Source: Candidatus Latescibacterota bacterium
GTDB lineage: Bacteria > Latescibacterota > UBA2968 > UBA8231
Reading direction: 5' to 3'
Assembly: GCA_965200315.1 (NCBI GenBank)
Contig: OZ241362.1
Location: 1,216,001 to 1,280,000, forward strand
Length of the DNA stretch: 64,000 nt
Of this stretch, positions 3,085 to 11,579 are shown in pieces. Position numbers and translations under genes: made by a program. A model generated the notes under the pieces. It had not been told where the DNA came from. It saw only the letters and a list, made by a program, of their open reading frames with translations, and ran no database searches. The first letter of the stretch is position 1. Each line of letters opens with the position of its first letter.

Positions 3085-4050
3085 CTATAAAAAATGTTTA
3101 CCAGCATGATCTGTAAACGAATCAGCGTCGCGGATGTATTGCATGACCGTGGCCGGGTTAGTGTGGCGGGTGACGGCCATGATTTTGTCTAGTCGGGCAT
3201 GATGCACTGCCGCGCTGGTGACAAAACCTGCCCGCAGGGAATGCCCTGCTACTTCTTTGGGGTCCAGTCCGATCCGTGCAGCATAGTGCTTGACAAGGCG
3301 TGGGATATCAGAATGGTGCAGCGGCTTGCCTTGCACATGGCCACCACGCTTCATCGTCTGAAATAGTGGGCCGCACATGATCCCCGACGCATTAAGCCAC
3401 ATCTGAAGACGATGGACAGGACGGATAACACGGCCGTCCAAGATGGCGATTTTTTGCCCCCTCCCCTGTTGATCCGTCTTGGAGTGCCGGATGGTAAGAA
3501 ACATGCGCTGACTCGCTTCCTCTGTAGGTTCAAAGAACTCAACATCCTCTACGGTCAGACCGCATATCTCCGAGCGCCGCAGGGCACCCGCAAAGCCGAG
3601 GGCCAAAATAGCCGCGTCGCGCCGCCCGATGGTCGTATCAGCACATTGAGAAAGCATGGCTTGAATATGGTATTCCCTGAGTGCTTCTACTCGACGACAC
3701 GCGGTACCTTTGAGCCGGGCCAACCCTTTGAGGGTGGCACGGACCACGGGATGATTGGTCGGAGACGACTTTCCGGCGTCGGTATATTTCTTGTTGATGG
3801 CACTCTTATAGAGCGTCACAGTGCCCATAGATAGCACGGTACCGTGCTGGCTCGGCTTTGTCGCTAGATGCACGAGAAAACGCGCTACCATATCCGGGGA
3901 GGCAGATAACGGGTCGTCAAGATGCTCTTTTGTGCAGTAGTTGGTGAACCTAGACCATCCTTTTTCATAGGCAACGCGGGTATTTGTCGCCAATGCGGAG
4001 GAAAGGACATTGGTATGGAAACCTTGCTCAATCATGGCTGAGGATCTCAA
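3085..4050 (-). CDS. Cre-like site-specific tyrosine recombinase (putative invertase/integrase)
   Basis: Catalytic residues intact: GALRRSE (R), HSKTDQ (K), GHSLRAG (HxxR), TRH, MQYIR (Y). Start is probably TTG at 4050 (GGAG RBS) or ATG at 4035. Confidence 0.92.
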   Translation of the reverse strand: MRSSAMIEQGFHTNVLSSALATNTRVAYEKGWSRFTNYCTKEHLDDPLSASPDMVARFLVHLATKPSQHGTVLSMGTVTLYKSAINKKYTDAGKSSPTNHPVVRATLKGLARLKGTACRRVEALREYHIQAMLSQCADTTIGRRDAAILALGFAGALRRSEICGLTVEDVEFFEPTEEASQRMFLTIRHSKTDQQGRGQKIAILDGRVIRPVHRLQMWLNASGIMCGPLFQTMKRGGHVQGKPLHHSDIPRLVKHYAARIGLDPKEVAGHSLRAGFVTSAAVHHARLDKIMAVTRHTNPATVMQYIRDADSFTDHAGKHFL

Positions 4051-4111
4051 TGGTAACTCCTTTGTTAGGGTTTTAGTGTCTTGAAACTTGCAAGATATGA
4101 CCGAACAACAT

Positions 4112-4283
4112 GATATTGCCATTTATCGAGGAGTTCTTACTGGTTACAATGACGCCTTTATCATTGATAACAACACTAAAGAAGCATTGATCGCCGAAGA
4201 TCCACGCTCTGCCGACATCCTCAAGCCTGTGCTGCGCGGACGGGATATAAAACGCTATCGGGCAGAGTGGGCAGGCCTGTGGC
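4112..4283 (+). repeat. Inverted repeat IR1-left (172 bp, imperfect)
   Basis: Pairs with 5534-5705; perfect sub-blocks of 12, 29 and 33 bp. Confidence 0.93.
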
Positions 4284-4425
4284 TAATTGACACACACAAC
4301 GGGTACGGCAGTGTTACGGCTGTCGATGTAGATGAATACCCAGCCATCAAAAATCATTTGGACCAGTTCTATTTCCAACTGAAAAAGCGGCAAGATAAAG
4401 GTAGGACACCGTATAATCTTCGTAA

Positions 4426-4462
4426 TTGCGCTTACCACGAAGTATTTGAAAAGGAAAAGCTG
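4426..4462 (+). repeat. Inverted repeat IR2-left (37 bp, perfect)
   Basis: TTGCGCTTACCACGAAGTATTTGAAAAGGAAAAGCTG is the exact reverse complement of 5328-5364. Confidence 0.95.
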
Positions 4463-4713
4463 GTGTGGATGGATCTGACGGAACAAGGACGGTTTGCGTA
4501 TGACGTGGATGGCCTGTTCTGCTTAAACACGGCATTTATTATGTCAGGTCCATCAATCAAATATTTATGCGCCCTGCTTAATTCTAATCTGATAACTTGG
4601 TTTATGAGAAACACTGCTCTGAGTTCTGGAATGGGTGTTACGAGATGGATTAATGCTTCCGTAGAATCAATCCCCATTCCGAAAATCACTATAGAAGAGC
4701 AACTTTCATTCAT

Positions 4714-4739
4714 CCGGTTGGTTGACCGTATCTTGAAGG
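4714..4739 (+). repeat. Inverted repeat IR3-left (26 bp, 2 mismatches)
   Basis: CCGGTTGGTTGACCGTATCTTGAAGG versus the reverse complement of 5048-5073. Confidence 0.75.
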
Positions 4740-4922
4740 TCAAAATATCTAACCCAACAGCCGATGTCAGCGATCAGGAGACAGAGATAGACCGCCTCAT
4801 CTATGCCCTCTATGGTCTGAAAAAAAAAGAAATCGCAGCGGTATCAGTAAAGGACAAATCATAGGTAAATCAAATTCTAAACGGCACCAAAACATAGTTT
4901 TATGAGCCGTCACGTTGATCGT

Positions 4923-7900
4923 CTAGGGTAGAAGATGCTCCTCTACTGCGAATATCTCCGTCTCCGTCAGTCCGTACAATTCGTAAACCTGCATATTAAT
5001 TTTGGCTTCAGTGGCAGATACATCGGCTTCCGGGTTAGTCGCTTTAGCCTTCAGGATACGGTCAACTAACCGGGCAAAAGGATGCTGCTTTACGGTAGGG
5101 ACTTGGGGAATAGGCAGGCGTTCTACCACAAATTTATCCCATTGGGTGAGTCCCATACCAGTCGTTACTGCGGTGTTCCGGACCTGCCAAGTTATGAGGC
5201 GACTATTCAAAATCGCACAGAGGTATTTGAGAGAATTTCCAGTGACAACAAATGCCTTTTGGTTGCAGAAAATAGTCTCCGAGTCGGAATATGCGAATCT
5301 GCCATTTGGTGCCATGTGCATCCAAAACAGCTTTTCCTTTTCAAATACTTCGTGGTAAGCGCAAGTATCCTGTAATTCGTACCAAGTATGCACAGTCTTT
5401 TTTCTTGATTTAGTGCCATTCGGAAGGGTTCTGCCCGATTGTTCTAATCTCGCTTCGCCAAAAGATAGCAGGTGTCTTTTCACGGCTGGATAGTCATCAA
5501 TGTTGAGTGCGAGAGCAGGAAATGTTGCTATCGGCCACAGGCCTGCCCACTCTGCCCGATAGCGTTGAATATCTCGGCCTCTCAGCACAGGCTTGAGGAT
5601 ATCGGCAGAGCGTGGATCTTCGGCTATCAACGCTTCTTTAGTGTTGTTATCAATGATAAAAGCATCGTTGTAGCCCGTCTTAATTCCGTAGTTAATGGCA
5701 ATATCCCACTCTTTCAGCGGCGTTCCCGCAGATTCCATCTTATCCATAATGCTCTGTTCAATGACCGATAGCGCACTCCACGGCTTTTCACCTTGCGGAC
5801 GCAACGTTCCCCACAGGGATTCGTCGGGTGGAAAGGTTTTATCGGACAAACGATCCATGTCCACGGCCTTGCCGATTTCATTACTCTTGCCATTGCGTAC
5901 TATCAGGACATTGGTATCCACAATGGCTTTTTCAAAAACATCTTTGCCCATTTCCAGCAGGCGCATCGGCGTGTGATGCTCAAAGAAGTAGCGGCGCAAG
6001 GCTTTGCCGTACTCTGCCTTGAGCCAGCTATTAGATGTGATATAGGCCAGCAAGCCTTGGGCTGGTTTGAGCAGCCGGCAGCCGCGCTCGTAGAAAAGCT
6101 GGTAAATGTCGCCAGTGCGGGCGAACGTTGCGTAGCCAGCATCCTTGTAGAGCTTGCCCAGTTCGCCGCTGTTTTTCTGCAATTGAATGTACGGCGGATT
6201 CCCGATCACCACATCAAACCCATCCTCCACTCCAAACATATACTCAGCGTCGAACCAACCCGCTTTCTCATTCTGGTCGTAGGGATCCCACCGCGCAATT
6301 TTACTAGCGTCATCTTCGGGAAGGCCGGCGGAAATCAGTTCCTTTGCCAATGCCTTACGCAACCGTTTGTCCTCATCTCTACAGGCCAGTTTTTTCCGGC
6401 GCGTGGTCGCGTGAAAATGCCGCTCGCGATTTTTCACCAAGTTTGTTTTCAGGGCCTCTATTTGCTGACGGAACAAGTCTAATTGATCCGCTTCCTCGAT
6501 TCCCAACAGCGTGTTCGCCGCCACAAAGCGCGTCTCCAGATTCGGCAGCGGCTTGATGCCAAAGTTCTCGACAGCCGCGTCGGCTTCCTGCTCAATCGCC
6601 AGCGAAATGAAAAAGCGCAGTTTGGCGATCTGGCAAGCGACCGGCTGAATATCCACGCCAAATATGCTGTTCTGAATCAAGTATAGCTTGCGCCCAAAAT
6701 CGCCCGAATACCGCTCGAAAATTTCGCTGATTCCGGTTAGTTCGTCATTGCGTTCCTGTTGATTCCGGGTATCGAAAGCCGCCGCGGCTCGTTGAGTAGC
6801 GCGCTCCTTTTGCAATGCCTGCCAGCGTTTATTCTCAGGGTCAATCCGCTGCAACGCCAAGGTCAGCTTGTGCAGTATGCCTATCGGAAACGCACCGGAA
6901 CCGACCGCCGGATCAAGCACCTTGATCTCCGCAATCGCCCGCACAATGCTCTCGGCTTCGGCTTCTTTAAAAAGTTCATTGGCATCATCAAATGCGTCTT
7001 CATAATCCAACAAATAGCGCAAACGATCTCGCCAGCACACCGCGCCGCCATCGTCGGGCTGCGCTCTTTCCGCCAGCGCTGCCACCAACGCCTCCTCCAC
7101 CATGTAATCCACCACAACGCGGGGTGTATAGTACGATCCAGTCTGCTTGCGCGCTGTCTCGCGGGTCTCTGGATTGTAGGCCGCCAGCAAGTTCTCAAAG
7201 ACCTTGCCGAGCAGTTCCGGGTCCAGAGCAACCTCCTGCTCCGCGGGCGTGTTTTCCTCCACCGTGAATTTGTAGTGGTTGAGCAGGGGAAATAGGCCGG
7301 CGGCGTCAAAAAATAGCCGGTTGGGAATGGACAAAAGCCCGTATTCCTTAGTGCCGGGTTTGATTGCGTTGTCGGAAAAGCAGTCAACGCGCCAGCCGCC
7401 ATAGCGCGTCGCTTCCTCGCTGTCCAAACAATCGAACAAGCCGCCGTTGATGAATGGGGTCTGGGCGAACAGGCCCAGCAGCGCATCAGGATCGCTAATC
7501 TCCCGTTTGTAGCGATACAAAGAAAAATTGCGGTGCGTGGCGTTTTGCGCTTGACTGAACCCACGTTTGTCGAGCTCGGTGTTCAGGGTGGCGAAAAACA
7601 GGTTTTGCAGCACCGCACGATAGTAGGAATCGCCGGTGTCGCGGTTGTAGTTTTTTAGCAGCAGGCGGATTCGTGCCTCGACGAACAGGTCGCCGGCAGT
7701 CAGCCCCTTCTCCTTCATAAACCAGACGAACAGCAGGCGCGTGATGAGGCGAATGACGTGCTCTTCGGCGGGCAGGGTGCGGGCCTGAGCGGTGGGAAAC
7801 CGGGCCTCGCCGACGGCGCGATCAAACCAAGTGAACAGCTCCCGGTAAAACCGTCGGTTGAGCTCTTCGGTGTCCAGTTTGTCTAACCACGCAGCCAGCA

Positions 7901-8543
7901 GGCCATCAAAATTGTGCGGCTTGTCGTGAGCATCCATCCACTCGGCACATTCGGCTAGCGACAGTTCGGCCAAAACATCCAAGTGGGCGCGATGGGGGCT
8001 GCCCGGGTCAATTTCCCGTATCAGCGACACATGGCCTAGCACATCGCGCCTTGGGTCGCGCTGGTGCTCGCGACGATGTACAAAGGCCAAGGTGAGCTTC
8101 TTATCGGCGGTTCTGAACAAAACGACCGAGGGTTGGACCAAGCGCTTGTTGAGCTCGCGGGTGAACTGCGCGTACTGGCCACGTGCGTAGGTTGCTTCCT
8201 TCAGTTCCACGGCGAAGAAGATAAAGCTCTGCTGCCGTCCCTTGTCGAAAAAAGCGGCCGTAAACCCAAACGCCGGCTGATTAGTTGAGGCGATTTCGTC
8301 GCTAGTAAACTGAAAGACAAGCCGCACGGATTGGACGTTTTCGCAGAAGGCCTGCTCCGTTTTGGTGTTTCCTTTCTCGGCGGGGAACTGCGCGATGAAG
8401 TCGGCAACATCGCCTGTCTGCTCAGGCAAGGTGCGCTCGCTGCGGTAGCCAAGAACAGCCAGTACGTCTTGCGTTGCCGCGGCAAAATCGCCCTGCGGCA
8501 TGGCCGCAAGAACGGCGCGTACATCCTCTTTTATGCTGCTCAT
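4923..8543 (-). CDS. Type IIG-like (Eco57I/TaqI_C) restriction-modification enzyme / N6-adenine methyltransferase
   Basis: GSYYTP, motif I VLDPAVGSGAF, motif IV IGNPPY, C-terminal TRD. The start at 8543 overlaps the helicase stop (ATGA) and has an RBS. An endonuclease active site was not confidently identified. Confidence 0.9.
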   Translation of the reverse strand: MSSIKEDVRAVLAAMPQGDFAAATQDVLAVLGYRSERTLPEQTGDVADFIAQFPAEKGNTKTEQAFCENVQSVRLVFQFTSDEIASTNQPAFGFTAAFFDKGRQQSFIFFAVELKEATYARGQYAQFTRELNKRLVQPSVVLFRTADKKLTLAFVHRREHQRDPRRDVLGHVSLIREIDPGSPHRAHLDVLAELSLAECAEWMDAHDKPHNFDGLLAAWLDKLDTEELNRRFYRELFTWFDRAVGEARFPTAQARTLPAEEHVIRLITRLLFVWFMKEKGLTAGDLFVEARIRLLLKNYNRDTGDSYYRAVLQNLFFATLNTELDKRGFSQAQNATHRNFSLYRYKREISDPDALLGLFAQTPFINGGLFDCLDSEEATRYGGWRVDCFSDNAIKPGTKEYGLLSIPNRLFFDAAGLFPLLNHYKFTVEENTPAEQEVALDPELLGKVFENLLAAYNPETRETARKQTGSYYTPRVVVDYMVEEALVAALAERAQPDDGGAVCWRDRLRYLLDYEDAFDDANELFKEAEAESIVRAIAEIKVLDPAVGSGAFPIGILHKLTLALQRIDPENKRWQALQKERATQRAAAAFDTRNQQERNDELTGISEIFERYSGDFGRKLYLIQNSIFGVDIQPVACQIAKLRFFISLAIEQEADAAVENFGIKPLPNLETRFVAANTLLGIEEADQLDLFRQQIEALKTNLVKNRERHFHATTRRKKLACRDEDKRLRKALAKELISAGLPEDDASKIARWDPYDQNEKAGWFDAEYMFGVEDGFDVVIGNPPYIQLQKNSGELGKLYKDAGYATFARTGDIYQLFYERGCRLLKPAQGLLAYITSNSWLKAEYGKALRRYFFEHHTPMRLLEMGKDVFEKAIVDTNVLIVRNGKSNEIGKAVDMDRLSDKTFPPDESLWGTLRPQGEKPWSALSVIEQSIMDKMESAGTPLKEWDIAINYGIKTGYNDAFIIDNNTKEALIAEDPRSADILKPVLRGRDIQRYRAEWAGLWPIATFPALALNIDDYPAVKRHLLSFGEARLEQSGRTLPNGTKSRKKTVHTWYELQDTCAYHEVFEKEKLFWMHMAPNGRFAYSDSETIFCNQKAFVVTGNSLKYLCAILNSRLITWQVRNTAVTTGMGLTQWDKFVVERLPIPQVPTVKQHPFARLVDRILKAKATNPEADVSATEAKINMQVYELYGLTETEIFAVEEHLLP
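5048..5073 (-). repeat. Inverted repeat IR3-right
   Basis: Partner of 4714-4739. Confidence 0.75.
5328..5364 (-). repeat. Inverted repeat IR2-right
   Basis: Partner of 4426-4462. Confidence 0.95.
5534..5705 (-). repeat. Inverted repeat IR1-right
   Basis: Partner of 4112-4283; same length, no indels. Confidence 0.93.
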
Positions 8544-8893
8544 GTTGTCTCTTTCCTCGTGCTCATTGTCAAGAGGGTGCCGACTCTCTGTAAAATTGCA
8601 TCTACTGTCTGCGTGGGCAAAGAGCATATAAACGCTGTATTTCTTGCCCGCCAATCCATACTCTTGACTTGATCTGTTAGAATAACGCCCGGCACATCCT
8701 GCCTCTCGGGCATGGCGACTTCAAAGGGATACCCTTTCACGTGACTGGTAACTGGGCAAAAAATCGCCAAACGGGTCTTGCTGTTATAAGCCCTCGGTGA
8801 GAGTACAACGGCGGGGCGACGGCCACCTTGCTCATGCCCTGCTTGCGGATTGAAGTCAATCCATACGACATCGCCGCGCTGTTTTAGCTCCAT
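8540..8893 (-). other. mazF: MazF/PemK endoribonuclease domain within the helicase ORF
   Basis: RGDVVWIDFNPQAGHEQGGRRPAVVLSP...CPVTSHVKGYPFEV...ILTDQVKSMDWRAR closely parallels E. coli MazF (GHRPAVVLSP, KGYPFEV, DQVKSIAWRAR). Confidence 0.9.
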
Positions 8894-11527
8894 CTGAATC
8901 GACTCAGATGGGTATTCGTTTAACGGATCGTCGTCGCCGCTAGCGGTGGCGTCCGCCAAGGCCATGCGTGCTTGTACGCGGCTTTGCAGGCGCAGATAAA
9001 CCTCGAGGTCCTTGGTAGGCCAATAGTTAATCATCCACACCGACTGGTTGCGGCTGCCGATGCGGTCAATGCGCCCTAAGCGCTGAATGATACGCACTGG
9101 ATTCCAGTGGATGTCGTAGTTGAGTGCGGTATCGCAATCCTGAAGGTTCTGCCCCTCTGAGATGCAATCGGTGGCAATCAGCAAGTCGATTTCGTCGGTG
9201 CTATTGGCCTGCCCGTGTGCCCGTGGCGCGAAGAGGGTCAGAATGGCGTTGAAGTTGTTAGGACCGAAAGCGGTGCGCGTTGCGTCCCCAGAGACCATCG
9301 CCATGTTCAACCCCAATTCGTGCACCAAGTCCGCCAAGTTTTCGTACAGATACTCCGCCGTATCCTTGAAGGTGGTAAACACCAGCAGCTTGCGGTTGAT
9401 CCGGCCATCCTTGTCGGTCGTCGGGTGTTGTGCTCTGTCCCGAATGTGCGCCTTAATCTCTCGCAGCTTACCGTCCCGTTCCGGCGTGATAATACTGACC
9501 CGTTCATAGACCGCCTCCAGAGTCTTCTTATCCTTCAGCAAGTCCTCTTTCCAACGGGGCAAATCCAACTCGCGCAGATGGTAGGGGGTGCGTGCCCGAT
9601 TGATCTGAAATTCCTCGTCATCTTCATCGTCATCCGGGAGGGTATCCGCTCGCTCGTCCAACAGCAGGTTTTGCTCATAGCGGTCTATCTTTTCTAGCAG
9701 GTCGTCAATTTTGCCGATAGTGCGCTTGAGCGTTTCCGTCAGAGAGTGGGCCGAACTTTCTAGGCGTTTCAGAAAGTTGACTCGTATCATACTGATGAGG
9801 AAACGCTCGCGGTCAGCCTGATTAAACCGCAGTTGCTTCTTTTCGTCCGCCAACCGTTGCTTGGCTTCGGGGCTGGTAACATAGCTTGACGGCCGGTAAA
9901 TGGATAAGGCGAACTGCTCAATTTGCGCGGATAATTTTTTGTACGAAAGCTCGTCCTCTAAATCCGTCAGCGGGTAGCAATTCTCCGGCTGTTGCCGCGT
10001 GGGGAACTGACCGATCCGGTCTATTTCTTCGGCGTAGAATTGCTTGATCTGCCGCCGTGAGCGAGCAATGGAAATGCCGCCCAACAGCTTAAAAAAATCA
10101 GCACCCAACGTCTCCAGTAACGTCGTCTTGTCTTTTTTGACACTCTTCTCCGCTTTCGTCTCCCATGCCTTAAACTCCTTTTGCGCCTGACCTAAGAGCG
10201 TGCCGATATGGCCGATGCCCAGACTTTCCCGGAACATGTCCTCGCGCTTTTCGGTCATCAGATAAATTTGATTGCGGAGGTCAATAAGCGAGGTGTTGAC
10301 CGGCGTCGCTGAAAGCATCAGCACCTTCGTTTGGGTTCCAGCCTTGATGACTTCTTCTAACAGCCGCGAGTAGCGGCTGTGGCGAATCCTGCCGTCTTCG
10401 TCGAGACGAGACTTGGAGTCATTGCGAAAATTGTGAGATTCGTCGATGACCACCATGTCAAAATTGCGCCAGTTGAACTGGGCCAGATCAATGTCGCCGG
10501 CTTGCCCACTGCTGCGGGACAAGTCCGTATGCGATAGCAAGGTGTAGCCAAAGCGGTCTTCGAGGAAGGGATTGCCAGTTCGGGCGTTATATGCTGGATA
10601 CAGCGCCCAATTTTCGCGCAACTTTTTGGGGCATAACACCAGCACTCGTTCGTTACGCAATTCAAAGAACTTGATAACCGCTAACGCCGTATAGGTCTTT
10701 CCCAAGCCGACCGCGTCGGCCAAAATACAGCCATTGTGCCGCCGCAGGTGAGCGATCACGCTCTTAGCTCCGTCTTTTTGGAAGTCGTACAGCGCGTTCC
10801 AGACGGCGGTATCGTATAGGTGTGTATCTTTTAGGTGGCTTTCGCCGGCTTTTCTCGCTTCGATGTCTTCCTGGAACAACTCGTAGAGCGTTTTATAGTA
10901 GATCAACTCCGGCGCGTACTCTCTGCCTATCCGCGCCAGCGCGTCCAGCACGTCCTTTTTGACATCCTTGGTCAGCGTCTTGTCCGCCCACAGATCGTCA
11001 AACCATTGTTGTAGTTCGGTACAAGTAGCTGCGTTTTGGGTTGCCAAGTTGATTTCCACGTTGGCACTCGTCCCGCTGCCTAGACCGCCGCGAGTAAAGT
11101 TGGAGCTGCCAACCACCGCTGTGCCGCCATTGGCTGATTCGGTGAGATACATCTTGCCGTGCAGAAAGTTGGATTTGCCAATGGAGCGAATTTTGACGCC
11201 TTTGCTGCTTATCCATGCTGTGCATTGACGAGCAAGGTATTTCTGTTGCAATGCGTACAGAGGCGATAGCCCGTCTTCAGTCAGGTTGAAGGCTTTTTGC
11301 GCTTTCTCGCCGGGGTCTAACTCGCCAACCGATGCCGGATCACCAAAGAGAAAACGCACATCCTTAACACCGTTCAATTCGCTTTGCAGGGCCTCGTACC
11401 CATAAATGGTGAAATACGCCGAGACGAGGCGAAACACCTCAGCGGCTGACAGGTGCGGCCGCAAATAATCGACAACTCGACGCTGGCGATTGTCTAGGAT
11501 GTGTTCGATGTGTTCGTATTCTGCCAT
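8540..11527 (-). CDS. PLD-domain SNF2-type helicase with in-frame C-terminal MazF/PemK domain
   Basis: PLD-like HGKMY...GSSNFT; Walker A ADAVGLGKT; DESH; SATP; QRLGRIDR. The last ~118 aa are MazF-like. Start is probably ATG at 11527. Confidence 0.9.
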   Translation of the reverse strand: MAEYEHIEHILDNRQRRVVDYLRPHLSAAEVFRLVSAYFTIYGYEALQSELNGVKDVRFLFGDPASVGELDPGEKAQKAFNLTEDGLSPLYALQQKYLARQCTAWISSKGVKIRSIGKSNFLHGKMYLTESANGGTAVVGSSNFTRGGLGSGTSANVEINLATQNAATCTELQQWFDDLWADKTLTKDVKKDVLDALARIGREYAPELIYYKTLYELFQEDIEARKAGESHLKDTHLYDTAVWNALYDFQKDGAKSVIAHLRRHNGCILADAVGLGKTYTALAVIKFFELRNERVLVLCPKKLRENWALYPAYNARTGNPFLEDRFGYTLLSHTDLSRSSGQAGDIDLAQFNWRNFDMVVIDESHNFRNDSKSRLDEDGRIRHSRYSRLLEEVIKAGTQTKVLMLSATPVNTSLIDLRNQIYLMTEKREDMFRESLGIGHIGTLLGQAQKEFKAWETKAEKSVKKDKTTLLETLGADFFKLLGGISIARSRRQIKQFYAEEIDRIGQFPTRQQPENCYPLTDLEDELSYKKLSAQIEQFALSIYRPSSYVTSPEAKQRLADEKKQLRFNQADRERFLISMIRVNFLKRLESSAHSLTETLKRTIGKIDDLLEKIDRYEQNLLLDERADTLPDDDEDDEEFQINRARTPYHLRELDLPRWKEDLLKDKKTLEAVYERVSIITPERDGKLREIKAHIRDRAQHPTTDKDGRINRKLLVFTTFKDTAEYLYENLADLVHELGLNMAMVSGDATRTAFGPNNFNAILTLFAPRAHGQANSTDEIDLLIATDCISEGQNLQDCDTALNYDIHWNPVRIIQRLGRIDRIGSRNQSVWMINYWPTKDLEVYLRLQSRVQARMALADATASGDDDPLNEYPSESIQMELKQRGDVVWIDFNPQAGHEQGGRRPAVVLSPRAYNSKTRLAIFCPVTSHVKGYPFEVAMPERQDVPGVILTDQVKSMDWRARNTAFICSLPTQTVDAILQRVGTLLTMSTRKETT

Positions 11528-11579
11528 ATCAGATAGGGAAAGAAGTGAATAGGCTTTCAATTGCTTAGTGATTGTCTAG

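Follow-up and report, generated by a model that had tools for sequence, protein, structure and literature searches.

Programmed inversions confirmed by long reads have been described by Milman, Yelin and Kishony (2023) in Type II restriction-modification (RM) genes homologous to Cj0031 (PMC9881135). In the example which they give from Bacteroides ovatus (CP083813.1:5322008-5329826), a PLD and SNF coding sequence (CDS) lies immediately upstream, variants coexist in long reads, and RNA-seq lends support; according to the same account, some programmed-inversion loci have more than two variants, and in Lacticaseibacillus rhamnosus nested inversions occur in the recognition region of the BREX type 1 protein PglX (PMC9881135). 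For the Type I hsdS locus Spn556II/SpnD39III of Streptococcus pneumoniae, inversion at a 15-bp repeat is reported to depend on the tyrosine recombinase PsrA (PMC4948785). Here, we describe a locus of this kind from Candidatus Latescibacterota bacterium (assembly GCA_965200315.1, contig OZ241362.1, positions 1,216,001 to 1,280,000; this whole stretch of 64,000 nucleotides is called the window, and its own numbering is used throughout). In this locus, an expressed N6-adenine methyltransferase with a target recognition domain (TRD) at its C-terminus converges on a silent TRD cassette, and the cassette is followed by a tyrosine recombinase gene.

The locus has an inverted partial copy, in-frame repeats, a recombinase gene and, among its relatives, arrangements explained by inversion, which together place it among the gene-altering programmed-inversion loci. 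From sequence comparison, we consider it likely that the locus is a specificity shufflon in which the tyrosine recombinase, a putative invertase, acts on the TRD of the methyltransferase. A sequence-only reading of this DNA had proposed that nested repeats allow the TRD to be assembled as mosaics, and its claims are taken up below where the results bear on them.

Homogenization within loci is confined to three repeat blocks

A repeat search and a gapped alignment of the cassette (4080-4870) with the reverse complement of 4917-5740 returned two inverted repeats, I1 (arms 4112-4294 and 5523-5705; 183 nucleotides [nt], 85% identity) and I2 (arms 4423-4501 and 5289-5367; 79 nt, 78%). Within them, identity is gathered in the edge block (E), inverted repeat 1 (IR1) and inverted repeat 2 (IR2), which share their codon phase between the two copies and separate the variable segments V1, V2 and V3 (Table 1). 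IR1 is the longest repeat in the window; its 127 nt are ~98% identical and contain perfect runs of 29 nt (4157-4185 and 5632-5660), 23 nt (4193-4215 and 5602-5624), 18 nt (4217-4234 and 5583-5600) and 33 nt (4251-4283 and 5534-5566). The perfect stretches of 12, 29, 33 and 37 nt stand exactly where the sequence-only reading had placed them, and the three segments which it had drawn between them are indeed divergent. It had also noted perfect blocks amid divergent synonymous sites, and the codons bear this out: where both copies encode the same residue, 48 codons are identical and 7 different in the blocks, versus 32 and 53 in the variable segments (Fisher p = 3.4e-9). Because the excess of identical codons is confined to the blocks, these must be kept alike at the DNA level, beyond what the protein level would explain. 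Simulated inversions of the window, with the inner site taken first, gave eight arrangements, all with open frames (1196-1206 amino acids [aa]) and with eight distinct sets of modules.

A further block, absent from the earlier reading, was found at the LVDRI codons (4713-4738 and 5049-5074; 26 nt with 2 mismatches, of which 12 nt are perfect at 4721-4732 and 5055-5066). It separates V3 from a dimorphic C-terminal tail (t1 or t2), and each locus has one tail of each type. Between loci the tails reassort against V3, and the perfect run at LVDRI is present in the window only.

Table 1. Features of the locus, in window coordinates
Feature	Position	Strand	Basis or remark
Edge block E, silent arm, 12 nt perfect, GATATTGCCATT	4112..4123		Outermost candidate crossover site
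Edge block E, arm within expressed gene	5694..5705		Alignment
V1, silent allele 'y' (IYRGVL)	4124..4156	+	33 nt; 58% nt identity between arms
V1, expressed allele 'n' (INYGIK)	5661-5693	-	Alignment
IR1, silent arm; core is the 29-nt run 4157-4185, codons FIIDNNTKE	4157..4283		Alignment
IR1, arm within expressed gene	5534..5660		Alignment
V2, silent allele A	4284..4425	+	46% nt identity to expressed V2
V2, expressed allele B	5365-5533	-	Alignment
IR2, silent arm, perfect 37 nt, codons CAYHEVFEKEKL	4426..4462		Alignment
IR2, arm within expressed gene	5328..5364		Alignment
V3 (alpha) and tail (t2), silent, stop codon included	4463..4864	+	53-57% nt identity to expressed copy
V3 (beta) and tail (t1), expressed, stop codon included	4923..5327	-	Alignment
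N6-adenine methyltransferase, expressed, C-terminal TRD, 1206 aa	4923..8543	-	Pfam Eco57I 8.8e-35, TaqI_C 4.1e-12
PLD nuclease-SNF2 helicase, MazF-like C-terminal domain in frame	8540..11560	-	Pfam PLDc_2, SNF2-rel_dom, Helicase_C, PemK_toxin; PADLOC 'HKD+Snf2' 1.5e-100
Silent TRD cassette, promoterless, modules y-A-alpha-t2	4112..4864	+	Pfam TaqI_C 2.3e-17; convergent with 3' end of expressed gene
Tyrosine recombinase, presumed invertase	3085..4122	-	Pfam Phage_integrase 3.3e-14; NCBIfam Xer-like matches under cut-off
Spacer, 58 nt, between convergent stop codons	4865..4922		Imperfect hairpin; would flip with every inversion

The two-cassette architecture is conserved together with the recombinase. 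A search with the silent-cassette TRD, covering 61 related genomes, returned convergent active and silent TRD pairs in 8 of them, the window's own counted. In all six loci where the contig continues, a recombinase homologue (57-89% identity) stands directly beside the silent cassette (in the locus L028, the contig ends inside the cassette); the four single-TRD loci have none within the 13-14 kb fetched. Its distance from the cassette is fixed in every locus. With the recombinase as query, 16 loci were recovered, one from a metagenome and 15 from genomes: nine carry both cassettes (two of these already fetched), two end in a TRD fragment at the contig end, three from Binatia lack cassettes, one has a broken recombinase beside a helicase, and one is a fragment. 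The distinct two-cassette loci number 14, lie mostly in metagenome-assembled genomes (MAGs) of sponge symbionts, and share the same recombinase family. Submitters labeled the recombinase loci as Latescibacterota, Arenicellales, Rhodothermales, Gemmatimonadota, Caldilineaceae, Dehalococcoidia, Binatia, Poriferihabitaceae and a Betaproteobacterium; the labels are partly inconsistent, as the flanks of L038, labeled Gemmatimonadetes, are 92-94% identical to the window. At the protein level, 6354 of the 8000 scored candidates were relatives at E <= 1e-20.

To find codons identical between the two partners of a locus, the cassettes were aligned by codon and scanned without bias over ~230 codon columns and 12 to 14 loci. 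Only E, IR1 core and IR2 combine full or nearly full codon identity within loci with several codons between loci. In the edge block, a codon for Ala, Ser or Glu is identical within the locus in 12/12 cases, while five codons (GCC, GCG, GCA, TCC and GAG) occur between loci. In the IR1 core, FIIDNxTK, partner codons are identical in 10 to 12 of the 12 loci, and in 11 or 12 over the inner IDNxT; each of the variants DNNTK, DNQTK, DEKTK and DNDTK is perfectly shared by the partners of its own locus, and identity over the DNxTK codons is 0.98 within loci versus 0.67 between them. The IR2 codons CAYHxxF are identical within the locus in 10 to 13 of the 14 loci. The columns of V1, V2 and V3 mostly score 0 to 5, and the higher ones correspond to an invariant Trp and to Gly, Lys and Met residues conserved between loci. 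When the partners were permuted, none of 20,000 shuffles reached the observed values for E (12/12 versus a mean of 2.8), IR1 (12/12 versus 2.2) or IR2 (8/14 versus 1.2); seven control columns or blocks in the same permutation were not significant.

A perfect run at the edge is present in every locus, 7-13 nt long; in L023, whose two V1 segments are alike too, it reaches 22 nt. The sequence-only reading had counted the 12-bp block as an optional crossover site. In the window alone that block amounts to four conserved codons, and the claim is rescued by the within-locus covariation across loci. The same reading had named homologous loci as the place to seek a conserved crossover core; the alignment delivered the three homogenized blocks and no convincing motif common to them. 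One candidate core derived from the sites, GCSNTTANC, occurs 15 times in the window versus 17.9 expected, and was dropped as the test is circular.

Several recombinase loci depart from this architecture. In three Binatia loci (L044 2499-5840, L045 513-3747 and L046 2208-5984), a recombinase 65-68% identical to that of the window lies within 2-3 kb of inverted duplicate genes of ~1.5 kb with nested repeats 92-99% alike; both scanned copies of L044 had no Pfam match, and a search of these loci for the IR1 and IR2 cores gave one weak pair of matches only. With these duplicates, the recombinase family may have a second kind of invertible cargo. In L047 (3049-6611), a recombinase with an internal deletion directly follows a PLD-SNF2 gene (79% identical to that of the window); with the methyltransferase, both cassettes and inverted repeats all absent, it looks like a collapsed locus. 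In L040 (4418-6029; Latescibacterota), both cassettes lose their frame near the 3' end, and the switch may be dead there.

Natural mosaics and inversions between genomes

The segments fall into recurring types: V1 is 'n' or 'y' with some intermediates, V2 is A or B, and V3 is of several types; every locus has one A-like V2 and one B-like (or C) V2. All eight coarse combinations of V1, V2 and V3 occur, six of them in the expressed position, in a count of 26 fully classed cassettes out of the 28 in the two-cassette loci, plus four single-TRD genes, with V3 classes drawn coarsely by single linkage at 55% identity. Up to eight chimeric TRDs had been predicted from the sequence alone, and the natural combinations, like the simulated frames, agree with that number. 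Both V2/V3 and V1/V2 fail the four-gamete test. The expressed TRD of L025 illustrates such a mosaic: compared with the expressed and silent copies of the window, its V1 is 85 and 58% identical, its V2 48 and 84%, and its V3 87 and 55%, with the switches at the blocks. Among full-length database relatives, both V1 classes are joined to alpha, beta, gamma and delta V3 on a B-type V2; 49 of 120 could be parsed by anchors, and this set is biased to B-type V2 as the query was the expressed TRD.

Inversions at two of the sites are visible between genomes. L026 and L040 are collinear over the methyltransferase body (76%) and the recombinase (83%), while the stretch of 1550 nt from one IR1 copy to the other is inverted (87.7%), and this is the sole clean single inversion seen between two genomes. 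The second is at E: the flanks of L033 are 89-92% identical to the window, its expressed TRD is of the window's silent type, in a match that begins at 4112, and its silent TRD is of the window's expressed type. L033, L035 and L038, whose flanks share 88-95% identity with the window, are each arranged differently. Additionally, both cassettes of L023 (6118-6139 and 7689-7710) carry a 'y' V1 with the 22-nt perfect run mentioned above, while its close relative L024 is n/y; this looks like non-reciprocal conversion of V1 alone.

Proposed DNA readout by the modules and rival explanations

According to the mechanism that we propose, the C-terminal TRD of the expressed methyltransferase chooses the DNA motif, and the neighboring tyrosine recombinase would catalyze flips at E, IR1 and IR2 within the population. 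Inversion at E would swap V1, V2 and V3 together, inversion at IR1 would swap V2 and V3, and inversion at IR2 would swap V3 alone, such that two cassettes could yield 2 × 2 × 2 = 8 expressed TRDs. Each mosaic would then methylate a different motif and direct restriction to it. By homology to CamA, the distal part of the motif would be read by V2, a middle base by V1, and the bases adjoining the target adenine by V3.

The assignment of modules to bases comes from a profile of 13 methyltransferase-TRD sequences, which matches CamA over the whole TRD (E = 6e-28) as well as M.BseCI (7e-28), and PglX/BrxX in the methyltransferase part only. The description of the CamA-DNA complex names 13 TRD residues at bases (PMC8187626); with the alignment numbering checked on the NPPY motif, two of these fall in V1, three in V2, seven in V3 and one in IR2, and none in E, IR1 or the tail. 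Gln346 and Ile349 correspond to the second and fifth residues of V1; V2 takes Arg425 and, right at its end, Gln438 and Trp439; Arg441 corresponds to the Ala of CAYH in IR2; Tyr455 and Lys456 correspond to the first variable residues after IR2; and Ser472, Ala473, Ser514, Ile517 and Tyr521 lie deeper in V3. The idea that the variable segments predict the base-contacting loops fits this alignment, in which 12 of the 13 residues fall in V1 to V3, and 11 of these 12 positions differ between the two cassettes of the window. In the account of CamA, the residues equivalent to V2 read bases 1 to 3, those equivalent to V1 base 3, and those equivalent to V3 bases 4 to 6 (PMC8187626). It is possible, and we put it forward tentatively as somewhat less than an even chance, that the single TRD consists of three independently exchangeable reading modules (V2 distal, V1 middle and V3 next to the adenine) forming a predictable 2 × 2 × 2 motif code from two cassettes and one recombinase, to which the LVDRI boundary might add a fourth division in this window, and that the shufflon and its recombinase circulate together by horizontal transfer among unrelated sponge symbionts, as a defense module held in common and quickly re-sorted.

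Several observations weigh against a recombinase-driven shufflon with this readout. At the boundary of V3 and tail, homogenization within loci is found in 0 of 14 loci, although the segments reassort between loci; therefore, reassortment alone is no proof of site-specific inversion. The edge runs of 7-13 nt, L023 apart, are no longer than the longest chance runs elsewhere in the same pairs (6-11 nt), IR2 is weak or absent in 4 of the 14 loci (runs of 4-13 nt), and no convincing core motif common to the three sites was found. Seven public runs, from sponge metagenomes and a coded 'organism A', contain the stretch. Joints with a strand change were found neither in the raw reads of run X8 (128 reads, ~6×) nor in those of X9 (28 reads, ~1.5×), depths at which a rate below about 1 in 3 reads would escape; the Logan contigs of X7 and X4 are interrupted at the repeats of 33 and 37 nt and so cannot show joints. 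Since no flipped reads were seen and the depth was only ~6×, switching in the population is something that we infer. The ongoing exchange at the blocks suggested by the earlier reading finds its support in the comparison between loci, and not in these reads. In X8, six reads join the window's silent V2 via IR2 to a third V3 allele, and in the X4 contigs the modules differ strongly in depth (expressed V3 ~11, silent V3 ~33, expressed V2 ~45), which fits a mixture of strains or arrangements (one X4 contig ends exactly at 4123). The third allele and the unequal depths go beyond inversion and therefore call for allele import or strain mixtures; part of the mosaicism is inter-genomic recombination. 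As for the readout, the mapping on CamA loops is an inference from a remote profile alignment, and an AlphaFold2 model on the alignment A1 (mean pLDDT 60.1, pTM 0.50, TRD mostly below 50) was too poor to check it.

Much of this would also be expected without programmed switching, if the cassette were a reservoir for general homologous recombination or gene conversion plus imported alleles, and the recombinase served the mobility of the island. The foreign V3 allele and uneven depths, the missing inversion joints and the reassortment of V3 and tail without a conserved repeat all speak for such a reservoir. So does the replacement of a module between L023 and L024, whose silent V3 is 60% identical between neighbors that are 83-93% identical, and so does the low GC of the island together with close homologues in MAGs labeled as several phyla, from which we also conclude that horizontal transfer is frequent. 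However, the recombinase is tied to the silent cassette (6/6 versus 0/4) at a distance that is fixed in every locus, the same recombinase family stands beside other inverted gene pairs in the three Binatia loci, and L026 and L040 differ by a clean reciprocal inversion. General recombination normally needs more than the 7-13 nt available at E, which counts against the reservoir as well. We regard this explanation as improbable, though it is the most probable of the alternatives to the shufflon.

A two-state switch, flipping at the long IR1 only, with the 12-bp block and IR2 as mere conserved protein motifs, draws on the rank of IR1 as the longest repeat in the window, on the fact that the only clean single inversion between genomes is at IR1, and on the conservation of TGCGCTTACCACG in IR2 both within and between loci. 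It is hard to reconcile with the covariation within loci of E and of those IR2 codons that vary between loci, as in the variants EVFEKE, EVFDKE, EVFRQD, EVFKKE and EDFTKE, each of which stands in both copies of its own locus, with the failure of V2/V3 and V1/V2 in the four-gamete test, or with the swap between the window and L033 that starts at E, and we hold it to be very unlikely. The frameshifted cassettes of L040 and the loss of cassettes and methyltransferase in L047 are what one would expect if the silent cassette were left over from a duplication, decaying and without a role today. Yet the silent frame is fully open in the window, as it is in 10 of 11 further loci whose silent cassette is complete (L040 being the exception, and L028 running off its contig end), the module types in the silent position recur as expressed ones in other genomes, and the blocks are nucleotide-perfect, so a remnant is hardly credible. 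A specificity shufflon remains the reading that we prefer.

Genes of the locus and comparison with known systems

The methyltransferase frame is open over 4923-8654 on the minus strand, and its start was set at the ATG at 8543, which overlaps the stop codon of the PLD-SNF2 gene (ATGA), so that the two genes are translationally coupled. The database gene call (P0005) has 1206 aa too, and its protein cluster holds one member from one contig, so that it supplied no variant from the same species. As in Type IIG enzymes of the Eco57I, MmeI or Cj0031 type, one chain holds both a TaqI_C-type TRD and a gamma-class N6-adenine methyltransferase domain that bears NPPY, and GNPPY is invariant in the alignment A1. 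The PADLOC model REase_MTase_IIG matches at 1.3e-137 over residues 654-1238 only, and in the N-terminal 414 aa the sole domain match is DUF4391, under the cut-off (E = 0.007). The PLD-SNF2 gene is presumed to be the restriction and motor partner of the methyltransferase, and for the nuclease role it is more likely than the N-terminus of the methyltransferase. At 8540-8850 (-), it carries the MazF/PemK-like domain (Pfam 1.2e-26; PHROG MazF-like 1.7e-27) with an internal ATG just before; the helicase homologues of other loci stop at residue 895 without this domain, and no antitoxin gene is evident for it. In other loci (L024 1864-2634, L030 11202-11972, and also L023, L025 and L026), an extra gene homologous to methyltransferase residues 37-294 stands between helicase and methyltransferase (weak DUF4391 matches at 2-5e-4, under the cut-off); the window lacks such a gene. 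The window's own genome encodes a second family member (L003, C1:5114526-5115227; a 1270-aa frame, TRD 51% identical), for which a search of that genome found no silent partner.

The open reading frame of the silent cassette spans 4088-4864 (+); in other loci, stop codons lie directly 5' of the cassette homology. Pfam and PADLOC scans found no methyltransferase domain in the cassette; PADLOC Type IIG models match it over their C-terminal 250 residues only (2.2e-66). The recombinase frame is open to the ATG at 4122, which lies within the 12-bp block. This ATG was rejected as the start codon: in L033, L025 and L037 the conserved N-terminus is cut off from the edge block by in-frame stops, and the place of the ATG inside the block is therefore a coincidence. 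Judged from the sequence, the true start is probably TTG 4050, with AAGGAG 6 nt upstream, or ATG 4035. The fold of the spacer hairpin is not significant (z-score -0.63), and a promoter and terminator scan of 3900-5900 returned fewer sites than shuffled sequence, with none at the recombinase start or the spacer. GC content is 0.44-0.48 at 4-6 kb versus 0.60-0.64 in the flanks. The neighbors of the locus are epimerase, Fic and UbiA genes; the Fic-domain gene (1917-2978, -; PADLOC SoFic 4.2e-37) adjoins the recombinase within the same low-GC stretch and may be a second defense gene of the island.

The locus offers a compact natural experiment on ways of rebuilding a TaqI-like recognition domain from its parts. 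Should each module read its own part of the motif, the many natural mosaics, with the 14 two-cassette loci and the 6354 related proteins as material, would serve as a look-up table for predicting or engineering the specificities of Type IIG, BREX and CamA-like enzymes. For sponge microbiomes, our observations suggest that unrelated symbionts share and reshuffle the same defense specificity switch; a literature search on RM inversions in sponge symbionts returned nothing relevant.

Among solved structures, CamA of Clostridioides difficile (7lni/8cxz) and M.BseCI (7qw5), gamma-class N6-adenine methyltransferases with TaqI-like TRDs, align in the catalytic motif and the whole TRD; both are solitary enzymes of ~580 aa, without the 640-residue N-terminal part, the helicase partner and the cassette. 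Class 1 DISARM (DrmD SNF2, DrmMI and DrmC PLD) likewise combines SNF2, PLD and an Eco57I-type methylase, but DrmA- or DrmB-like genes are absent from 1-12.5 kb, DrmD scores 140.7 bits versus a cut-off of 610, and DrmMI is weak. The inversions described for PglX resemble those proposed here in that they are nested, rewrite part of the recognition region and have a recombinase gene beside them; in that account, however, the C-terminus of PglX is constant, whereas here it is the C-terminus that would flip. PglZ, BrxC and the other BREX core genes were not found within 1-12.5 kb, and PglX models reach 91.8 bits versus a cut-off of 500. The Type I hsdS shufflons, as described for S. pneumoniae, likewise consist of an expressed gene and silent partial copies, with repeat pairs of very different length and combinatorial alleles (PMC4948785). 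The units exchanged there are whole TRDs, two of which make up a separate S subunit, whereas in our locus the units are sub-modules of one methyltransferase-fused TRD.

A close counterpart is the locus of B. ovatus, where, by the published description, a PLD and SNF2 CDS also lies upstream of a large Eco57I-type gene whose 3' part is rewritten against a partial inverted copy. The two were compared by that description, and the read-level proof of switching belongs to B. ovatus alone. The 'Cj0031' label for our methyltransferase likewise comes from PMC9881135. Programmed inversions in this gene context are thus of a kind already published by Milman et al. (2023) (PMC9881135), and no new category is needed. 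Relative to these described systems, what is new here is the presence of three nested sites within a single TRD, their covariation across loci, and the mapping of the variable segments on base-contact loops.

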